Positions 52,994 to 64,000 are shown, counted from the first letter of the stretch. The stretch is DNA of 64,000 bases from a virus (IMGVR_UViG_3300033141_003979:32001-96000), one strand, 5' to 3'. Numbers and translations are program-made. The notes: generated by a model from the sequence alone, not told the origin.

Positions 52994-53740
52994 ATGAGAG
53001 ACAAAAACAATTTAAAAAGCCGGTTTAAAAGAAAAAATATAAATACAAATTCTTTAGAAAAAGAAATTTTAGAACAGGCTAATAAATTATTTAAAGGATT
53101 AGACAAATTAAAGTCTGAAACAAAAATTAACACTATAAATGAAATAAAGAAAAAACTCCATAATTATAGCCCGTTTAAAAACGAACCGGTTGATTGTGTT
53201 TTGTGGGCAAGAGGCAAAGATATATATGCCAATGATTATAATCCAAATGCTGTCGCTCCTCCAGAAATGGAATTGTTAAAACAATCCATTTTAGAGGATG
53301 GATTTACCCAACCAATTGTATCATGGAAAACTGAAAATGGAATTGAGGTTGTTGATGGTTTCCATAGAAATAGAGTTGGAAAAGAAGTGCCAGAAATACA
53401 GGATCGCCTTTTTGGATATTTACCTGTTGTAAATATTAATCAAAACAGAGAACAAAAAGGAGATAGAATAGCATCTACTATTCGGCATAACAGAGCAAGA
53501 GGGACCCACAATATAGAATTAATGAGCACTATTGTCACCGAATTAGTAGAAATGGGAAAAGGAGATCCTTGGATTTGTAAGCATGTAGGGATGAGTATAG
53601 ATGAATTATTAAGATTAAAACAAATAACAGGAGTTGCTGCGTTATTTAAAAATAGAGACTTTTCTGAAAGCTGGGAAGTAGACATTAGTGTGGATTATTA
53701 TGAAAACAACCAAAATGATTTTATAGAACAAAAAGAATGA
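52994..53740 (+). CDS. ibrB: IbrB-like ParB/Srx-domain protein
   Basis: SPFKNEPVDCVLW...ANDYNPNAVAPPEMELL..SILEDGFTQPIV...VVDGFHR...ASTIRHNRARGTH. Confidence 0.85.
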   Translation: MRDKNNLKSRFKRKNINTNSLEKEILEQANKLFKGLDKLKSETKINTINEIKKKLHNYSPFKNEPVDCVLWARGKDIYANDYNPNAVAPPEMELLKQSILEDGFTQPIVSWKTENGIEVVDGFHRNRVGKEVPEIQDRLFGYLPVVNINQNREQKGDRIASTIRHNRARGTHNIELMSTIVTELVEMGKGDPWICKHVGMSIDELLRLKQITGVAALFKNRDFSESWEVDISVDYYENNQNDFIEQKE

Positions 53741-54120
53741 AAAAGATTTGGCATCCTTGGTATTTATGGGAATGTTATAAGGCAGGCTTTTATTCTTCAT
53801 TTTTAGATATAAAAATAGACATTGAAGATGCTCAAGAACAATACAAAGTGTTTTTATCAGATTTAAAATTGTTCGAAAGAGTATTAAAGTGCGTAATTAT
53901 AGAATGGAAATATTCATGCGAACACTTTTTGACCGATAAAGGCAGGAATAGAATTGCGTGGTTGGGGCAAGCATGTATGGCGTATTATGCCGGAATACCA
54001 TCCGAGGCCCGTGCTGGATTTAAGTTATTAACAGAACAGCAACAAATTAATGCCAATGCAATGGCGTTGAAATATTTAAAAATTTGGGAAAATAAAAATT
54101 CGGATAAAGTCCTTGAATGA
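53737..54120 (+). CDS. Hypothetical protein in the IbrAB cassette
   Basis: WHPWYLWECYKAGFY...WKYSCEHFLT...NRIAWLGQA; ATGA-coupled on both sides. Confidence 0.7.
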   Translation: MKKIWHPWYLWECYKAGFYSSFLDIKIDIEDAQEQYKVFLSDLKLFERVLKCVIIEWKYSCEHFLTDKGRNRIAWLGQACMAYYAGIPSEARAGFKLLTEQQQINANAMALKYLKIWENKNSDKVLE

Positions 54121-55685
54121 AAACTAAGATAAAAAAATATATTCAAATGTGGAATAATCGCGGATACACAGAAGATATTCCTGATGAAGTTCCTGAAAAA
54201 TTAATGCAATTAAAATTAGCTCCGTCATATAAAGCCATAAGCATAGCAATTTTAAAAAATGACCACTCTATGAAAAATCTCGGATTTACTCCTAAAAAAT
54301 CCAAGTGGTATAATGAATTTAAACGCATAGAAATAGAAAATAGAAACAAGGAAACTTCTATGGAACAATACAATAATCCGAGGCTACTACGAAAATACAA
54401 TAAAAATAAAAACGTACATGATGCTACCAACGAACGATTTAAATTTATTTTTGATAATTTCCCAAGAATCTATTTGTCATTTTCAGGGGGAAAGGATAGT
54501 GGCATTATGCTTAATTTGGCACTAGAGTATATGAGAAAAAATAAAATAACTAAAAAAATAGGGTTGATGATTTTAGACAATGAAGCAAATTATGAGTATT
54601 CTCTTGAGTTCATGCACAAGATAATTAGAAAAAATCTTAATTTGCTTGATGTTTATTGGTGCTGTTTACCAATTACATTACCTTGCACGGTAAGCTCATA
54701 TGCTGTTGAATGGCAATGTTGGGGTGAAAGGGACAAAAAAAGATGGATAAGACCAATGCCACCTGATAGCTACATTACAAATTTTAAAAACCACAAGTTT
54801 GATTTTTTTTGGGAGGATATGAATTATGACGAATTTTGGGATAAATTTGGAGATTGGTATGGCCAAGGGCAAAGAACTGCATGTTTAATAGGTATTAGAA
54901 CTGTTGAAAGCTTGAATAGATATAGAGCCATAATGAACCCAAAAAAGAAAACTCTTAGGGGGCAAATGTGGACAAAAAAGAATACTAAATATGTATATAA
55001 TTGTTACCCAATATATGATTGGAGAACAGAAGATATTTGGACAGCTAATGCTAAATTTGGATGGGAGCATAACAAATTATATGATATTTTTTATAAAGCA
55101 GGAGTACCAGTTCATAGCATGAGAGTAGCATCTCCATTTATGTCTGAATCTAAATCAAGTCTTGGGCTATATAGGGTAATTGATCCTCATGTTTGGGCGA
55201 AGCTTTGTGCAAGGGTTCAGGGGGCTAATTTTATTGCAACGTATGGAAAACAATTAAATTATAGATCATTTAAACTACCAAAAGGACATACATGGAAATC
55301 CTTCACAAAATTTTTATTAGATACTTTGCCAAAAGAAGTAGCTGAAAATTTTAAAATGCGCTTCATTCAATCGTTTAAATATTGGGGAAGAGTGGGGCGC
55401 GGATTACCCAATAAAACTATAGAAGAACTAAAACAATATGATATTTCATTTAAATTAAATGGCCTTACTCATCATGGCAGAAAAGACTTATCTAGAGTAA
55501 GAATTCAGTCACTCCCTGATCATCTTGATATGTTAAGTTGTAATAATAGTCAAGTTACTTCATGGAAGCGATTTGCATTAACTATTTTGAAAAATGATCA
55601 TACCTGTAAATATATGGGACTTGCTCCTACAAAAGAACAAGCACTTAGACAAAGACAAATAATGGAAAAGTATAAAAATATTTAG
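54117..55685 (+). CDS. ibrA: IbrA-like PAPS-reductase-family / DUF3440 protein
   Basis: SFSGGKDSG (PP-loop), LIGIRTVESLNRY, YPIYDWRTEDIW, MRVASPF, SWKRFALTILKND. Confidence 0.85.
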   Translation: MKTKIKKYIQMWNNRGYTEDIPDEVPEKLMQLKLAPSYKAISIAILKNDHSMKNLGFTPKKSKWYNEFKRIEIENRNKETSMEQYNNPRLLRKYNKNKNVHDATNERFKFIFDNFPRIYLSFSGGKDSGIMLNLALEYMRKNKITKKIGLMILDNEANYEYSLEFMHKIIRKNLNLLDVYWCCLPITLPCTVSSYAVEWQCWGERDKKRWIRPMPPDSYITNFKNHKFDFFWEDMNYDEFWDKFGDWYGQGQRTACLIGIRTVESLNRYRAIMNPKKKTLRGQMWTKKNTKYVYNCYPIYDWRTEDIWTANAKFGWEHNKLYDIFYKAGVPVHSMRVASPFMSESKSSLGLYRVIDPHVWAKLCARVQGANFIATYGKQLNYRSFKLPKGHTWKSFTKFLLDTLPKEVAENFKMRFIQSFKYWGRVGRGLPNKTIEELKQYDISFKLNGLTHHGRKDLSRVRIQSLPDHLDMLSCNNSQVTSWKRFALTILKNDHTCKYMGLAPTKEQALRQRQIMEKYKNI

Positions 55686-56600: not shown

Positions 56601-57140
56601 ATGATAGCCAAAAACCTAAAGAATAGCTGGATTCAGACCTATACAGGCAAACAATTTTTTCCATTAGCTCCAAAGATTGACCAGATCTGCATTGAGGACA
56701 TTGCACAATCTCTTGGAAAGATATGCAGATTCAATGGGCATACTTTAAAATTCTATTCGGTAGCAGAACACAGTATCTATGTCAGTCATTATGCTTCTGA
56801 GAAGAACTCCTTATGGGGCTTATTGCATGATGCTGCAGAGGCATATCTAGGGGATATAGTTAGGCCATTAAAGCCATTTCTGAATGGATACAAAGAAATA
56901 GAAAAGAATCTAAGTAAATGCATAGCCAAAAAATTCAATCTTGAATGGCCGATGCCAGAGGAAATCAAACAAATTGATATAGCAATACTACATGACGAAT
57001 CGATTCAAGTTATGGGTAAAAAGCCACAAGCATGGTCTCAGCTTAGCCTGTCTCCGCTTGGGGTTAGAATAATAGGTTTTGATTATAGTGATGCAACCCG
57101 AATATTTCTAGAAAGATATCAAGAATTGGTTAAATGCTAA
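56601..57140 (+). CDS. HD-domain 5'-deoxynucleotidase-like protein (YfbR/YfdR family)
   Basis: WIQTYTGKQF...IEDIA..L...CRFNGH...FYSVAEHS...LLHDAAEAYLGD. Confidence 0.85.
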   Translation: MIAKNLKNSWIQTYTGKQFFPLAPKIDQICIEDIAQSLGKICRFNGHTLKFYSVAEHSIYVSHYASEKNSLWGLLHDAAEAYLGDIVRPLKPFLNGYKEIEKNLSKCIAKKFNLEWPMPEEIKQIDIAILHDESIQVMGKKPQAWSQLSLSPLGVRIIGFDYSDATRIFLERYQELVKC

Positions 57141-57863: not shown

Positions 57864-58943
57864 ATGCAGTATTTTGATTTTTCATATAAATGGCAACTAA
57901 AGACTGGATATCCAAAAAAGAAAAATGGCTATTTTGTTTTTAGTTGTTTTGCCTGTGGTGGCGGTTCAACAATGGGATATAAATTAGCCGGATATGATGT
58001 TTTAGGGTTTAATGAAATAGACCCTAAAATGGCAGAATGTTATATTGAAAATCATAATCCCAAATATCAATTTATAGAACCTATACAAGAATTTAAAAAT
58101 AGAAATGATTTGCCAAAAGAATTATTTAATCTTGATATTCTTGATGGTTCACCCCCATGTTCAAATTTTTCAATGGCAGGCAATAGAGAAAAAGACTGGG
58201 GCAAAAAGAAAAAATTTAGAGAAGGGCAACAAGAACAAGTTCTTGATATCTTATTTTTTGATTTTATTGACCTTACTAAAAAATTACAGCCTAAAATTGT
58301 AATTTCAGAAAATGTTCCAGGAATTTTAATGGGAACGGCATTTCAATATGTTCAAAAAATATATAAGGATTTTAAAAATGCGGGATATTATACAATTCAT
58401 AGACTTTTAGATGCATCAAAAATGGGAGTCCCTCAAAAAAGAAAACGGGTATTTTTCTTTTCAATTAGGAAAGATTTAATAAAACATATTGATACATATG
58501 ATTTTTTTGATGAAAATCCTAAAATTGATTTAATGTTTAATGAGAAGGGAATTTTATTTAAAGAAATAAAAACAAATTCAAAAAGAAAAACTATTCAAAA
58601 AACAATTCAAGATGCTTATCATTATTGCACAATTAATAAAAATTCTGATTTTGCGCAATATTTTGAAAAAATAAGTGGCAAAAGAAAATATTTTAACACA
58701 CGATTGATTTTTAATAATGAAATTTGCAGCACAATAAAAAGTGACTGCACTCATATTATTGAAGGGGAGAAAGCATATATAAATAATGAGGAAATAAAAA
58801 AGGCAAGCACATTTCCTAATGATTATAATTTTAAAAAAAACAAAGTTGATTATTTATGTGGAATGTCAGTTCCACCAGTAATGATGGCGCAAATATCAAA
58901 ACAAATTGAAATTCAATGGCTTGATAAAATTTATCAAAAATAA
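57864..58943 (+). CDS. C5-cytosine DNA methyltransferase
   Basis: FACGGG (motif I), DGSPPCS (IV), ENV (VI), GVPQKRKRVF (VIII), GMSVPP (X). Confidence 0.92.
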   Translation: MQYFDFSYKWQLKTGYPKKKNGYFVFSCFACGGGSTMGYKLAGYDVLGFNEIDPKMAECYIENHNPKYQFIEPIQEFKNRNDLPKELFNLDILDGSPPCSNFSMAGNREKDWGKKKKFREGQQEQVLDILFFDFIDLTKKLQPKIVISENVPGILMGTAFQYVQKIYKDFKNAGYYTIHRLLDASKMGVPQKRKRVFFFSIRKDLIKHIDTYDFFDENPKIDLMFNEKGILFKEIKTNSKRKTIQKTIQDAYHYCTINKNSDFAQYFEKISGKRKYFNTRLIFNNEICSTIKSDCTHIIEGEKAYINNEEIKKASTFPNDYNFKKNKVDYLCGMSVPPVMMAQISKQIEIQWLDKIYQK

Positions 58944-59397: not shown

Positions 59398-60459
59398 ATG
59401 GCAAGACGAACAAGGCAAACAGTAGAGGCAGAACCACAAACACAAGCAAATGAAGTTAATCGACAAGATCTCATTGATGCCCTGACTAAAGTCAACCCCG
59501 GTTTGGCAAAAAAAGAATTGATTGAGCAGTCAACCCATTTCATTTTTGACGACGACAAGATTTGGACTTACAATGATCAGATCACTATTATGCATAAATT
59601 CAACACCGGATTAACAGGGGCTGTCAAGGCAGAGAAATTCTTCAAGCTTCTTGATAAAATCCCCGATGAAACAATCCAGATCTCAGGTACCGAAAAGGGG
59701 AAAATAAAACTCTCCGGCAAAAAGATCAAGGCCACTATCAATATTGATCCAGATATCAAACTTCAGCCCATCCAGGTTCCCGGCATCAATTCTAAGCAGT
59801 GGGAGGAGTTGCCTAAAAACTTCTCAGATGCCATCGCTTTTGCCGCCTTTTCGGCAAGTCGAAACATGGCCCGACCAGAACTTACTTGCATTTGGATTAC
59901 GGACGGGCAGGCCGTATCATGCGATTCCTACCGGGGCACCAAATATCAGTTGGATTCCAAGATGGAGCAGGACTTTCTTCTCCCCGCAACAGCCGCAGTA
60001 GAGCTGGCAAAGTATACCCCCTACAAAATCATTATTGACGGGGGATGGCTGCATTTCATCAATAATGAGAAAACCTCATTTTCCTGCCGGACATATTATG
60101 ATGAAGAATATCCCGCAATGATCTGGAAGTTCTTTGAAATAGAAGGGCAAAAGATAGTGCTCCCAGACGACTTTCTTGATGCAATCGGAAGGGCAGAGAT
60201 CATGCTGACTGCGGACTTTGATCTTGATCGATTTGTATTACTAACTATGGAGGCCAATACATTAACCTGTAAAGGGGAGGGGATATATGGAGAGTTTGAA
60301 GAAACTACAGATATTGATTACAGCGGGGAAAAGATTGAAATCAAGGTCCATCCTGTTCTGCTCTCGCAAATCCTAAAGCACATCCAGGTTATGGTTGTTG
60401 GAGAAAGGCTCCTATTTCATGGGGATAAATTTCAGCATGGAGTTTGTTTGAGCTGCTAA
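59398..60459 (+). CDS. DNA polymerase III beta-clamp-like protein
   Basis: 353 aa; VNRQDLIDALTKV...AFSASRNMARPELTCI...SCDSYR...YP; close to DnaE. Confidence 0.7.
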   Translation: MARRTRQTVEAEPQTQANEVNRQDLIDALTKVNPGLAKKELIEQSTHFIFDDDKIWTYNDQITIMHKFNTGLTGAVKAEKFFKLLDKIPDETIQISGTEKGKIKLSGKKIKATINIDPDIKLQPIQVPGINSKQWEELPKNFSDAIAFAAFSASRNMARPELTCIWITDGQAVSCDSYRGTKYQLDSKMEQDFLLPATAAVELAKYTPYKIIIDGGWLHFINNEKTSFSCRTYYDEEYPAMIWKFFEIEGQKIVLPDDFLDAIGRAEIMLTADFDLDRFVLLTMEANTLTCKGEGIYGEFEETTDIDYSGEKIEIKVHPVLLSQILKHIQVMVVGERLLFHGDKFQHGVCLSC

Positions 60460-60471
60460 AAGAGGTGCAAA

Positions 60472-61020
60472 ATGAAAAAGATACCAACTATATTTAAACG
60501 TAATCCCAAAAATATGCGAGAACTCTTAGATGAAGTTCATCCAGATTGTTTATGGGTATTCGCTGGCGAGGGGATAGCGACCAGAAAGTATGACGGCACA
60601 TGCGTAAAAATAGAAGACGGAAAATATTTTAAACGGAGAGAAGTTAAGAGAGGTAAAAACGCACCCACTGACTTTATTGAAGAACAACTTGACGAAAATA
60701 CAGGCAAACGAGTTGGATGGGTGCTTGTTGACCCAAACTCTAAAGAGGATCAATGGCACATGGAAGCTTTCAACACATCCTTCATTGACGGTACATATGA
60801 ACTTGTCGGGCCTAAAATCCAAGGGAATCCTGAAGGGCATGGGCGCCATGCTCTTATAAAGCATAGCGAGGCGGGTATTTTTGGCAATGCACCACGAACA
60901 CTGGATGGTATCGCAGAGTTTTTAAAGGACAAAAATATAGAAGGGCTTGTATTTCATCACCCCGATGGTCGGATGGGTAAAATCAAAAAGAAGGATTTTC
61001 AACAAAAGAGGATTCCATGA
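60472..61020 (+). CDS. RNA-ligase-like nucleotidyltransferase (DUF5565-like)
   Basis: TRKYDGT (motif I), YELVGPKIQGNP (III), EGLVF (IV), KIK (V). Confidence 0.75.
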   Translation: MKKIPTIFKRNPKNMRELLDEVHPDCLWVFAGEGIATRKYDGTCVKIEDGKYFKRREVKRGKNAPTDFIEEQLDENTGKRVGWVLVDPNSKEDQWHMEAFNTSFIDGTYELVGPKIQGNPEGHGRHALIKHSEAGIFGNAPRTLDGIAEFLKDKNIEGLVFHHPDGRMGKIKKKDFQQKRIP

Positions 61021-64000
61021 CAGGTTTCTGCCACATCCATACCCATAATGAGTTCAGTTATCTTGATGGGTTCGGCTCTGCAAAACACTACATTGCCAAA
61101 GCAAAAGAACTAGGCATGCTGGCAATTGCCATAACAGATCATGGCGTGGTCGATGGTTGTATCGAGTGGCAAAAGGAATGTGACAAACAGGAAATGGGGT
61201 GTATTTTAGGGGTAGAAGCTTATATCGTTCCAGACGCCAATATCAAAAAGAAGGAAGATAAGCCTGCCCATATTACAATTCTTGTTCGTAATACTGCTGG
61301 CTGGATTGAGTTATGCAAACTTCTAACAAGGGCAAACCTAACAGGGTTTTATCGCAAACCCCGCCTAGATTTCAATACTTTACTCAATGCAGATTTATCC
61401 GGCCTTATCATTCTCACTGGATGCTCAAATTCATTCTTGAATTTGCCTGGCGGAATTGAAACTCTAAAAGAAATGCAGGATAGAATGAAGGGAAGAATCT
61501 ATCTTGAAATTATGCCGCATGATTTTCCTGTCCAATATGAACATAATAATCTAATCCAGAAACTACATGAAAAACATGATATCCCATTAGTAGCAACAAA
61601 TGACTGCCACTACATTGAAGAGGAAGACTGGGAGGCCCAGGAAATCTTGCTAGCCATTCAGACCAAAGCCAAGTGGGATGATCCGAAGCGGTGGCGCTTC
61701 GGGATTAAAGGATTACATCTTAGGACAGAAAGAGAGATGCTATTTGCATTCAGGAAACACTCTTTTTCTTCTAAGCAGATTGAACAGGCAATAGGCAATA
61801 CAGTTAAGATCGCAAAACTATGCTGTGAGTTCAGAATTCCAAAACAGGAGATCAGTTTGCCTTCCCCTTATGACAAAATCAATGATAATAAATTTCTGGA
61901 TAAACTATGTTGGCAACAGATCGATAAAGAAAAGTTAGATGATGATTATCAAAATCGATATCTCCATGAGTACCGTCTCATCAAGAAGAAAAAGTTTGCA
62001 AGATATTTTCTCATCGTCTATGACATCATCCAGCATTGCCATAGAGAAGGTATTGCGGTTGGCCCCGGAAGAGGAAGTATCGGAGGGTCACTGATCGCCT
62101 ATTTGTTGGGCATTACACAAGTTGATCCCATCAAATTCCATCTATCTTTTGCTAGATTCATTAGTGAAAATCGTATCGACTGGCCGGACATAGACCTCGA
62201 TTTCGAGACACGTCATAGAGAAAAGGTCCGCGAGTATCTATGTGATAAATACGGGAACAATAATATCTGCGGCATCTCTACAGAAATGAAGATGAAAAGC
62301 AAGGCTGCCCTGAGAGATGTAGGGAGAGTATTTGACATTCCTGCGGCAGATGTAGATGAAGTCACCAAAGCCATCAGGCAAAAGGAACACGAGCACGGAA
62401 GTGGCATTCAATCCGTAATTGATAAAACCAAAGAAGGAGAGAGATTCGCAAGGAAATATCCAAAAATAGTCAAGTTTGCCAAAAAGATGGAAGGCCATGT
62501 CCGGGGCAGTGGACAACATGCGGCGGCAGTCATCATATCAGACGAAGACTTGTCTGAGGGGAAGAAATGTGTCCTTGTCAGGCGTAAAGATAGAATTGTT
62601 TGCAATTGGAATATGAAAGACTGTGAATATGTTGGGTTGATGAAACTAGATGTTTTAGGATTGTCCACATTATCTGTATTGGCAGAAAGTGAAAGATTGA
62701 TTCAAGATATTCCTCTTGAAAGATTTAATCTTAACGACACCCCATTAGATGACAAAAAAGTATTTGACCTCATCAACAAAGGGGGGACTGCCGGAATGTT
62801 CCAAATTTCTGCAACTCCAACTACAATACTTTGCAAGGAAATGGGAGTTAACAATTTTGAAGATATTGTTGCCGCAATTGCCCTAGTCCGGCCCGGACCA
62901 GCAGATTCGGGGATGACAGAAAAATATCTCAAAAGAAAACACGGAGAGGCTTGGGAAAAGAAACATCAAATATATGAAGAGATTACTAAACATACTTATG
63001 GCATCCCGGTTTATCAAGAACAAATCATGCAGATAATCAGTCGTGTAGCAGGATTATCTGAAAGTACCGCAGATGAAATTCGCAAAGTAATTGGAAAGAA
63101 AAGAGATCCAAAAGAATTTGAACTATATCGAAAACAGTTTAAGAAGGGTTGTAAAAAAGCAAAAACCCTATCAGAAAAGGAAGCAGATGATTTTTGGAAA
63201 GGATTGTTAAAGTGGGCTAGTTATGGATTTAATCGTGCCCATTCTGTTTCCTATGCCTTGATTGGCTACTGGACAGGATGGTTAAAGGCAAATTACCCAG
63301 CAGAGTTTATTTGTGCTTCACTTTCCTATGGGGATTTCGACGACAAGTCATCGGATCTTGCCAAACAAAAGAAACCGCTCCTTGAGGAAATAATAAAACT
63401 TGGCATCACAATTATGCCTCCGAAAAAAGATTTATCAGATCCTACAAGATGGACGGTTAAGAATAATAGATTATACGTTCCATTTATAGAGATAATTGGA
63501 GTAGGGGAAACTCAAGCACAAAAATGTGCACAGAGCAAAAATACACAAACACGGCTAAAAAGCTTTTTTGGAAAAGAGTATCTTCCTGAAAAGAAAAACA
63601 AGATTGACACAATCCTTGACGAACTTAAAGTGTTCGACCCAGAAGTAATTCCATCATCGAAAGTCTTGTCAAGATATCTCCCTTTCAGCATTGAAAAAGA
63701 AGAGTCGTATTGTGGGTTAAAAGAAGTTCTTGGTTTTAGTTTCCCTAGAAAAGAAATCCCTAAATGGAAAACCCTTTATATTCCAAAATATCGTCTTCCT
63801 CCTGGATTAATCAGGCAAGCCCGCTTTCGCAATAGCAATTTAACAAAGTGTAGAAACTGTGAACTCGTAAATGAATGTAGAGCCCCTGTCATGCCTTCCT
63901 GTGGAATGTTTAATGTAATGATAATTGGCGAAGCTGCTGGCCCACAGGAGGACGAATATGGTAGGGGATTCTATGAAGAGGCCCCTGCAGGAGAATTGTT
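61017..64000 (+). CDS. dnaE: DNA polymerase III alpha (DnaE) fused to a uracil-DNA-glycosylase family-4-like domain (partial; not in ORF track)
   Basis: MTGFCHIHTHNEFSYLDG (PHP), GPGRGS, WPDIDLDF, KLDVLGL, YGFNRAH; then in frame CRNCEL...V...G..NVMIIGEAAGPQEDEYGRGF. Confidence 0.9.
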   Translation, partial: MTGFCHIHTHNEFSYLDGFGSAKHYIAKAKELGMLAIAITDHGVVDGCIEWQKECDKQEMGCILGVEAYIVPDANIKKKEDKPAHITILVRNTAGWIELCKLLTRANLTGFYRKPRLDFNTLLNADLSGLIILTGCSNSFLNLPGGIETLKEMQDRMKGRIYLEIMPHDFPVQYEHNNLIQKLHEKHDIPLVATNDCHYIEEEDWEAQEILLAIQTKAKWDDPKRWRFGIKGLHLRTEREMLFAFRKHSFSSKQIEQAIGNTVKIAKLCCEFRIPKQEISLPSPYDKINDNKFLDKLCWQQIDKEKLDDDYQNRYLHEYRLIKKKKFARYFLIVYDIIQHCHREGIAVGPGRGSIGGSLIAYLLGITQVDPIKFHLSFARFISENRIDWPDIDLDFETRHREKVREYLCDKYGNNNICGISTEMKMKSKAALRDVGRVFDIPAADVDEVTKAIRQKEHEHGSGIQSVIDKTKEGERFARKYPKIVKFAKKMEGHVRGSGQHAAAVIISDEDLSEGKKCVLVRRKDRIVCNWNMKDCEYVGLMKLDVLGLSTLSVLAESERLIQDIPLERFNLNDTPLDDKKVFDLINKGGTAGMFQISATPTTILCKEMGVNNFEDIVAAIALVRPGPADSGMTEKYLKRKHGEAWEKKHQIYEEITKHTYGIPVYQEQIMQIISRVAGLSESTADEIRKVIGKKRDPKEFELYRKQFKKGCKKAKTLSEKEADDFWKGLLKWASYGFNRAHSVSYALIGYWTGWLKANYPAEFICASLSYGDFDDKSSDLAKQKKPLLEEIIKLGITIMPPKKDLSDPTRWTVKNNRLYVPFIEIIGVGETQAQKCAQSKNTQTRLKSFFGKEYLPEKKNKIDTILDELKVFDPEVIPSSKVLSRYLPFSIEKEESYCGLKEVLGFSFPRKEIPKWKTLYIPKYRLPPGLIRQARFRNSNLTKCRNCELVNECRAPVMPSCGMFNVMIIGEAAGPQEDEYGRGFYEEAPAGEL

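Follow-up and report, generated by a model that had tools for sequence, protein, structure and literature searches.

A DnaE-type DNA polymerase fused to a family-4-like Fe-S uracil-DNA glycosylase in a phage genome: a putative module for uracil handling at replication

The virus record IMGVR_UViG_3300033141_003979 is a complete genome of 109,770 bp with direct terminal repeats, of which we analyzed bases 32001-96000, a stretch of 64,000 nucleotides that is hereafter called the window. At the right-hand edge of the window, on the plus strand, begins a gene that codes for a DnaE-type DNA polymerase with a uracil-DNA glycosylase (UDG) domain of the family-4-like Fe-S type at its C-terminus. Its in-window part (61017..64000, codons 1-994 of 1140; from open reading frame (ORF) lists and translation) starts with an ATG at 61017, which overlaps the stop of the upstream gene (60472..61020) by 4 nt, and is open for 994 codons up to the window edge. 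Past the edge the frame continues for 146 further codons to a stop at window-equivalent positions 64437-64439, giving a protein of 1140 aa (P0002; L002:3018-6440) whose N-terminus lines up with the N-termini of its homologs in the alignment. Pfam searches recover in this protein a PHP domain (residues 6-168), the DNA_pol3_alpha core (293-548), the finger domain (551-715) and the UDG domain (966-1105). The original prediction, which had proposed an in-frame DnaE-UDG fusion open from 61017 to the edge, is thus borne out, and the strings on which it was based are found at residues 736-742 (YGFNRAH; 63222-63242), 826-834 (IIGVGETQA; 63492-63518) and 945-986 (CRNC...GEAAG...GRGF). The UDG motifs that lie beyond the window are present in the downstream DNA, namely VTNIVKC (1011-1017), C1034 and LHPAAV (1089-1094).

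A fusion of this kind could also be an artefact of assembly or frame that unites two separate genes. This explanation can be regarded as effectively refuted, since no stop or frameshift separates the domains in any of 170 related proteins from independent assemblies, the frame is continuous in 35 of 45 related IMG/VR records and in all 40 long representatives, and the fusion is also present in finished Acinetobacter plasmids. The open frames in the 35 IMG/VR records are about 1085-1250 aa long, being shorter if the contig cuts the gene and longer where inteins are present.

The N-terminal PHP domain (residues 6-168; 61032..61520, plus strand; PF02811, 104 bits) keeps all nine metal ligands (H8, H10, D17, H42, E67, H85, C136, D196 and H198), each of which is at least 90% conserved in 40-46 relatives. 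As these ligands are retained and no DnaQ-type exonuclease was found in the complete phage genome, the PHP domain is likely to act as a built-in 3'-5' proofreader, for which DnaE1 of Mycobacterium tuberculosis offers a PHP-based precedent. The Pol III alpha catalytic core and fingers (residues 293-715; 61893..63161, plus strand; PF07733, 262 bits; PF17657, 151 bits; TIGR00594, 727 bits) contain the catalytic aspartates in the motifs PDIDLDF (390-396) and KLD (543-545), with D391, D393 and D545 conserved in the relatives. An AlphaFold2 model of P0002 built on 13 homologs (mean predicted local distance difference test score (pLDDT) 80.7, and 80-92 in the UDG region) superposes over about 900 residues on Pol III alpha structures in Foldseek comparisons, with a target-normalized template modeling (TM) score of 0.80 against 2hnh.

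The core is followed by a helix-hairpin-helix (HhH) domain of the beta-binding type (approximately residues 780-847; 63354..63557, plus strand) that includes the IIGVGETQA string. Strands and a helix are modeled in this region, and the PF14579 (HHH_6) domain is detected in 11 of 40 relatives. The DnaE models of NCBIfam, which have about 1146 positions, cease to align at about residue 851, and NF004226 scores 726 on P0002 against a cut-off of 1002. An OB fold has no Pfam match in P0002 or in 40 relatives, the segment 852-939 being modeled as three short low-confidence helices, and a tau-binding C-terminal domain (CTD) has no match in P0002 with Pfam or NCBIfam. Compared to the bacterial replicative DnaE1, the phage protein therefore lacks both the OB fold and the tau-binding CTD; the DnaX protein of the phage likewise lacks the tau domains, and there is no DnaQ partner. 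P0002 is the phage's own C-family (DnaE-type) replicative polymerase, and belongs to a "short" DnaE lineage without the OB and tau-binding domains.

Between the HhH domain and the UDG lie two segments of very different character. The first is a conserved module (residues 848-890; 63558..63686, plus strand) marked by the motifs SFFGK, LDELKVFDP and RYLPF, with conserved F850, F851, L867, P879 and F890. It occupies the place at which bacterial Pol III alpha carries its internal clamp-binding motif, and is a candidate for a contact with the clamp or the replisome. In a complex prediction that paired residues 790-900 with the phage clamp in two copies, the score was 0.55, the best of three controls reaching 0.01 (contact agreement of at least 68% and partner pLDDT of at least 74 in these runs). 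This lends weak support to such a contact and yields no interface. For comparison, 58 of 80 solved complexes passed the mark, as did 2 of 110 mismatched pairs; those passing with a score of at most 0.60 comprised 7 of the 80 and both of the mismatches. As the result may reflect a memory of solved alpha-beta complexes, we do not use it as evidence of mechanism. The second segment (residues 891-939; 63687..63833, plus strand) is a variable linker with pLDDT values of 50-63, short helices only, no OB fold, and a gap-rich, poorly conserved alignment.

The UDG domain comprises residues 940-1118, of which 940-994 lie in the window (63834..64000, plus strand; PF03167), whereas the remainder, with N1013, C1017, C1034 and H1090-P1091, occupies window-equivalent positions 64001-64370 on the same strand. 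The PF03167 match is well above its cut-off and far better than chance would give (74.6 against 24.3 bits, E = 1e-20, residues 966-1105). All four cysteines that are predicted to ligate a [4Fe-4S] cluster are present (C945-x2-C948, C1017 and C1034), as are the motif-A glutamate (E972), the stacking phenylalanine (F985), the pocket asparagine (N1013) and the HP dyad of motif B (H1090-P1091). The phenylalanine, the asparagine and the HP dyad align with their equivalents in structures of UdgX and family-4 enzymes. In phmmer searches of the PDB the matches of P0002 include UdgX and the Thermus thermophilus UDG (E = 1e-16 to 1e-13). In structural comparisons the UDG region (about 185 residues; Foldseek) fits the classical family-4 structures (TM score of 0.83, root mean square deviation of 2.2 Å and 189 columns against 1ui0; TM score of 0.82 against 1vk2) better than UdgX (TM scores of 0.67-0.79).

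The stand-alone UDGa enzymes of Thermus thermophilus, Thermotoga maritima and Sulfolobus tokodaii (1ui0, 1vk2 and 4zbx; target-normalized TM scores of 0.77-0.83) thus share with P0002 the fold, the four Fe-S cysteines, the motif-A glutamate, the stacking phenylalanine, the asparagine of the TNxxKC motif and the HP of motif B. The phage domain differs from them in its sequence (about 25-28% identity), in the GEAAG form of motif A, in its fusion to a polymerase and in a 22-residue tail that ends in DDIPF. The UdgX protein of Mycobacterium smegmatis (6ail and other entries) is the best PDB match by sequence (E = 1e-16) and has the fold and the Fe-S cysteines in common with P0002. Membership in the UdgX family was nevertheless rejected, as P0002 shows gaps where UdgX has the cross-linking loop with His109, and reaches only 85 bits with TIGR03914 against a cut-off of 190. 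NCBIfam models of the UdgX family, the archaeal UDGs and family 4 all match residues 940-1111 and all remain below their curated cut-offs. The P0002 domain hence represents a divergent branch, secure in its superfamily membership and not in strict equivalog membership. It is the sole UDG of the phage, no other being found in the complete genome.

The tail that follows the UDG domain ends in ...NIGDDIPF (window-equivalent 64419-64436; L002:6420-6437). The tip of the C-terminal tail of the Escherichia coli single-stranded DNA-binding protein (SSB) is DDDIPF. No other ORF of the genome ends in a manner resembling DDIPF, and the gp32-like SSB of the phage has a basic tail (...RRRRQQPGNRR). Approximately 10 of the 170 fused relatives carry comparable tails, such as DEILF, DDIPF or DDVPF. 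The DDIPF tail could be a mimic of the SSB tail, or a contact with the clamp or replisome.

The original prediction implied that the fusion was novel; the architecture was in fact printed in 2014, is found in cultured Acinetobacter phage-plasmids and is common in metagenomes. Timinskas, Balvociute, Timinskas and Venclovas (NAR 2014, PMC3919608) describe a "DnaEX" variant in which a PF03167 UDG takes the place of the OB and C-terminal domains; the paper devotes one sentence to the variant, without function, phylogeny or phage context. It corresponds to P0002 in the order of its domains (PHP, Pol3 core, (HhH)2 and a C-terminal UDG, with no OB or tau-binding CTD), and like P0002 it is an extra DnaE borne on a mobile element. 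P0002 is accordingly a well-preserved member of a published and common DnaE-UDG architecture.

A protein of the ~110-kb phage-plasmids of Acinetobacter baumannii, recovered from a plasmid collection, shows 30% identity to P0002 over 95% of its length. In a few plasmids it is coded by one uninterrupted gene of 1151 aa (CP046537). In most of the ~110-kb Acinetobacter phage-plasmids a homing-endonuclease gene of the NUMOD4 type interrupts it near codon 785 (e.g. pABTJ2, NC_020524.1 19596-23839), which explains why RefSeq lists "dnaE" and "uracil-DNA glycosylase family protein" as two genes in pABTJ2. The UDG-like domain of the Acinetobacter proteins is degenerate (ADCPT, TTLVKA and NP in place of the motifs), the glutamate, asparagine, histidine and one Fe-S cysteine having been lost and the domain itself retained; in contrast, P0002, a member of the environmental branch, has the full catalytic set. 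Among GenBank phages, the UDG part of P0002 finds matches of at most 35% identity, and these only in PolA-linked or stand-alone UDGs, so that it has no close relative among deposited phage genomes.

To survey the wider distribution of the fusion we ran an exhaustive phmmer search with residues 860-1140 against 1.84 billion representative sequences. This gave 115 matches at E < 1e-30, most of them about 1,080-1,900 aa long with the UDG at the extreme C-terminus; the 40 long matches that were scanned all have the pol3-alpha, finger and UDG domains, and none has an OB fold. Among the 120 proteins closest to P0002 in the polymerase core (47-66% identity), approximately three quarters contain PF03167; about a quarter lack it and are 880-950 aa long. 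In IMG/VR the polymerase has at least 545 relatives. The DnaE-UDG architecture is thus common in uncultured phages. In 35 of the 45 related IMG/VR records there is exactly one UDG, which in every case lies within the long polymerase frame; the other 10 lack the domain, and a stand-alone UDG was seen in none of the 45. Among the 14 records with a completeness of at least 90%, 12 are fused.

The unfused relatives bear on how the fusion arose. They all end shortly after the module equivalent to residues 848-890, about 40 residues past the HhH, without OB fold or CTD. The contrast drawn in the original prediction, that DnaE normally continues into an OB fold at this point, therefore does not apply to this clade, as the unfused proteins nearest to P0002 (up to 67% identity) lack the OB fold and CTD too. 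For the same reason we rejected the idea that the UDG replaces the OB fold in the P0002 clade: the unfused sisters terminate after the same GFF...KYLxF module without OB fold or CTD. As the sisters share the short form, the short DnaE is instead the ground plan of the clade, to which the UDG was appended as an accessory via the variable linker.

We further constructed a FastTree phylogeny from 181 polymerase cores, leaving out the UDG columns and taking the DnaE of a Rhizobium phage as the outgroup. The nearest neighbors of P0002 in this tree (67% identity) are unfused. Pairwise distances in the UDG correlate with those in the core (r = 0.58, a value reached in 0 of 500 permutations), with the UDG being slightly more diverged (mean p-distance of 0.59 versus 0.54); the nearest fused relatives are 56-60% identical to P0002 in the C-terminal region versus 51-65% in the core. 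In a tree of the UDG domains the PolA-fused UDGs, used as the outgroup, are separate from the DnaE-fused ones. Seven short UDG matches (187-220 aa), candidates for split forms, scatter without support among the fused UDGs, and at least two of them are fragments. The simplest reading of the evolutionary pattern is that the UDG was acquired once, long ago, was then inherited vertically together with the core under purifying selection, and was lost independently many times.

In the 170 fused relatives the Fe-S cysteines are kept in 97-100%, E972 in 91%, N1013 in 91% and H1090 in 89%, and all three of the latter in 82%. In two IMG/VR relatives (L062 and L063) the UDG is interrupted by an intein of about 385 aa (ORF residues ~1050-1436 in L062). 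The intein follows HITNVVK immediately and is itself followed directly by the Fe-S cysteine, which acts as the +1 residue (...SHN|CWPS), and an insertion site before the cysteine of the TNxxKC motif is typical of functionally critical residues. Taken together, the conserved catalytic set and the site of this intein argue that the domain performs chemistry. Inteins in the polymerase core are seen in other relatives (PF14890 in many matches).

In light of these observations, the best guess for the function of P0002 is that it couples the handling of uracil to replication. More precisely, we favor the excision of uracil in the course of replication by a tethered, putatively active family-4 UDG on a C-family replicase, to which we assign a probability of roughly 60%. 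Several observations weigh against it. Motif A of P0002 reads GEAAG (971-975) in place of GE(A/G)PG, and at the proline position 155 of 170 relatives have proline and only 2 alanine; GEAAG is also found in the PolA-fused UDG P0021. The scores with the curated family-4 models fall short of their cut-offs (77.3 against 125.3 bits for TIGR00758 and 81.9 against 250 for NF040953). Neither an AP endonuclease (of the ExoIII or EndoIV type; AP stands for apurinic/apyrimidinic) nor an ATP- or NAD-dependent ligase was found in the genome, and PolX was also not found, an absence that is soft as the search responded weakly in control genomes. On the core tree the fused or unfused state must have changed at least 17-18 times, a count that is independent of the root, with loss rather than gain being the direction that we infer; moreover, two complete relatives, G001 (75 kb, with direct terminal repeats) and G039, have no UDG in any frame. 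These switches and complete genomes indicate that the function of the UDG is dispensable. Finally, 31 of the 170 fused relatives (about 18%) lack one or more of the E, N and H residues and yet keep the Fe-S cysteines and the fold, and such degenerate but retained versions, those of Acinetobacter included, imply that some members of the family use the domain in a non-catalytic way.

The last of these points also speaks for an alternative in which the UDG fold of P0002 itself is non-catalytic, and helps the replisome by binding DNA, by raising processivity or by sensing uracil and stalling, in the manner of vaccinia D4 in the E9-A20-D4 holoenzyme or of the uracil read-ahead pocket of archaeal family-B polymerases. 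The rare change of proline to alanine in motif A and the failure to find phage partners for base excision repair (BER) in the genome would also fit this alternative. Precedents are available in the vaccinia D4 protein, reported to be a processivity cofactor (PMC3946371), and in the herpesvirus UNG, which is reported to bind replication factors independently of its catalytic residues (bioRxiv 10.1101/2023.05.19.541466). Against this stands the complete catalytic set of P0002, which it shares with 82% of the family. Furthermore, the module is missing from many sister polymerases, including the two complete genomes mentioned above, without any replacement or stand-alone UDG, and the loss of the whole module in this way makes an essential role in structure or processivity less likely. 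We therefore consider a non-catalytic UDG in P0002 unlikely, while giving it serious consideration.

The closest functional parallel to a catalytic fusion is found in the UDG-PolA proteins of SP15-like phages (YerA41 and phiLo). Missoury et al. (NAR Oct 2026, PMC13697223) report that the UDG in these proteins is active, and that it recognizes and excises deoxyuridine (dU) in the template ahead of the fork; the abasic site is bypassed with deoxyadenosine (dA), completion falls to the co-occurring PolX and ligase, and the phages are hypermodified at T. DnaE and the C family are not mentioned in that work. An N-terminal UDG domain on PolA is also known in the PaBG group (PMC7412058). The SP15-like, SPO1-like and PaBG-group proteins resemble P0002 in having a family-4-type UDG covalently joined to a phage replicative polymerase, but their polymerase is of the A family and their UDG is N-terminal, whereas in P0002 the polymerase is of the C family and the UDG is C-terminal. 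The opposite end of attachment and the different polymerase family point to an independent origin of the DnaE-UDG and PolA-UDG fusions. The UDG of P0002 matches the PolA-UDG proteins weakly (9qhs, E = 3e-4; also P0020 and P0021). In contrast to the SP15-like phages with their PolX, ligase and T-hypermodified DNA, no PolX, ligase or ThyA-like enzyme was found in the phage of P0002.

As the characterized PolA-UDG fusions come from T-modified phages (PMC13697223), the domain might alternatively police a genome of modified pyrimidines by removing unmodified dU, as proposed for the SP15-like T-hypermodified phages, or else recognize another base. The dNMP phosphatase gene in the same module as P0002 would agree with this, and the rare variant of motif A could alter the base pocket. 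However, N1013, F985 and H1090 constitute the canonical uracil pocket set, and neither a ThyA-like dUMP/dCMP hydroxymethylase nor a PolX or ligase was found in the genome; thymidine-modification genes were also not identified in it, the annotation of the genome being not exhaustive. The handling of a modified base, which had been offered in the original prediction as one of two options, thus finds no support in the genome and appears quite improbable.

If the excision of uracil at replication is indeed the function of P0002, a glycosylase on a flexible linker of about 50 residues would remove uracil from phage DNA at the fork, the uracil deriving from misincorporated deoxyuridine monophosphate (dUMP) or from deaminated cytosine. 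The data demonstrate the fusion, the glycosylase fold, the intact ligand and catalytic residues, purifying selection on the module and its dispensability, whereas catalytic activity and the place of action are deduced. Excision might act on the template strand before the polymerase reaches it, as in PolA-UDG, or on the nascent duplex behind the fork, close to the clamp. Repair could be completed by host enzymes together with the flap endonuclease (FEN) of the phage and the polymerase itself; as BER enzymes of the phage's own were not found, AP sites would be either handled by host enzymes or bypassed. In such a scheme DnaE-UDG would be to the C family what the active UDG-PolA fusions of SP15-like phages are to the A family. 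A bolder version would have P0002 excise uracil from the template in a read-ahead mode and then bypass the lesion, as a third independent invention of replication-coupled uracil surveillance, after the pocket of archaeal PolB and the fusions of UDG to PolA, with the DDIPF tail recruiting host enzymes that are clients of SSB to finish BER. Such recruitment, if true, would explain how a phage manages without AP endonuclease, ligase and PolX; we regard this combined version as doubtful.

Uracil recognition is coupled to replicative polymerases in several other systems. In herpesvirus UNG, human UNG2-PCNA, archaeal UDG-PCNA and the read-ahead pocket of archaeal PolB the coupling is in trans or in a pocket. 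The vaccinia E9-A20-D4 assembly (PMC3946371) resembles P0002 in that it physically ties the recognition of uracil to the polymerase that replicates the genome. D4, UNG, UNG2-PCNA and archaeal UDG-PCNA are, however, non-covalently associated enzymes of family 1 or of archaea, and archaeal PolB employs a pocket, whereas in P0002 the coupling is covalent and involves the C family. Polymerases of this family copy the chromosomes of bacteria, and one was present in every bacterial genome analyzed in PMC3919608. An intact glycosylase on DnaE would provide a direct test case of whether uracil excision at replication also evolved in the C family, and the related fused, unfused and catalytically degenerate versions provide a natural series for comparison. 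To our knowledge, no C-family polymerase is known to have a repair activity beyond proofreading. To the published architecture the present analysis adds the view of the UDG as an accessory and repeatedly lost module, the rejection of OB-fold replacement and of a link with a C5 cytosine methylase (see below), the DDIPF tail, and the intein at the Fe-S cysteine.

The dnaE-UDG gene belongs to a replication module that also codes for a DnaB-like helicase, a sliding clamp, FEN, a gamma-like DnaX, a gp32-like SSB and a RecA-like protein. The clamp, a divergent beta-type protein of 353 aa, is coded two genes upstream (59398..60459, plus strand; phrog_947 "DNA polymerase processivity factor", E = 2e-34), and shows a weak co-linear match to the beta-subunit structure 2avt (E = 0.015). 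The gene between them codes for an RNA-ligase-like protein of 182 aa (60472-61020; phrog_14301, E = 4e-57), and is translationally coupled to dnaE by the ATGA overlap. Downstream, the gamma-like DnaX clamp loader (315 aa; L002:8848-9795) is devoid of the tau C-terminal domains, which fits a polymerase without a tau-binding domain.

A C5 cytosine DNA methylase gene (57864..58943, plus strand; PF00145, 150 bits) is a neighbor only. The original prediction was right in recognizing a DnaE fused to a family-4-like Fe-S UDG, and went astray with novelty, the OB-fold contrast and the suggestion that the UDG would be useful in combination with this methylase. The association was rejected, as PF00145 is present in 0 of 12 complete fused relatives and its one strong match is in an unfused record. 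Moreover, 5-methylcytosine deaminates to thymine, which is not removed by a family-4 UDG. A complementary distribution of the UDG with dUTPase was similarly rejected, PF00692 being found in 0 of the 45 related records, fused or unfused. In the genome under study neither the trimeric (PF00692) nor the dimeric type of dUTPase was found, the absence of the dimeric type being soft since the search responded weakly in control genomes. Upstream of the methylase lies a gene for a dNMP phosphatase or 5'-deoxynucleotidase-like protein (56601-57140; phrog_318, E = 1e-62), which could function in the editing of the nucleotide pool.

Among near-complete genomes, the fused ones have a median size of 84.7 kb (n = 14) versus 65.2 kb for the unfused ones (n = 4; Mann-Whitney p = 0.012, uncorrected for phylogeny), a hint that the fused UDG goes with a larger genome. 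The replication module further includes an endonuclease gene of the DUF559/MTES_1575 type between FEN and the clamp loader (L002:7793-8845), and, at 52994-55685 in the window, a ParB-like gene (phrog_2159) with, two genes on, a PAPS-reductase and DUF3440 protein that make up an IbrA/IbrB-like pair.

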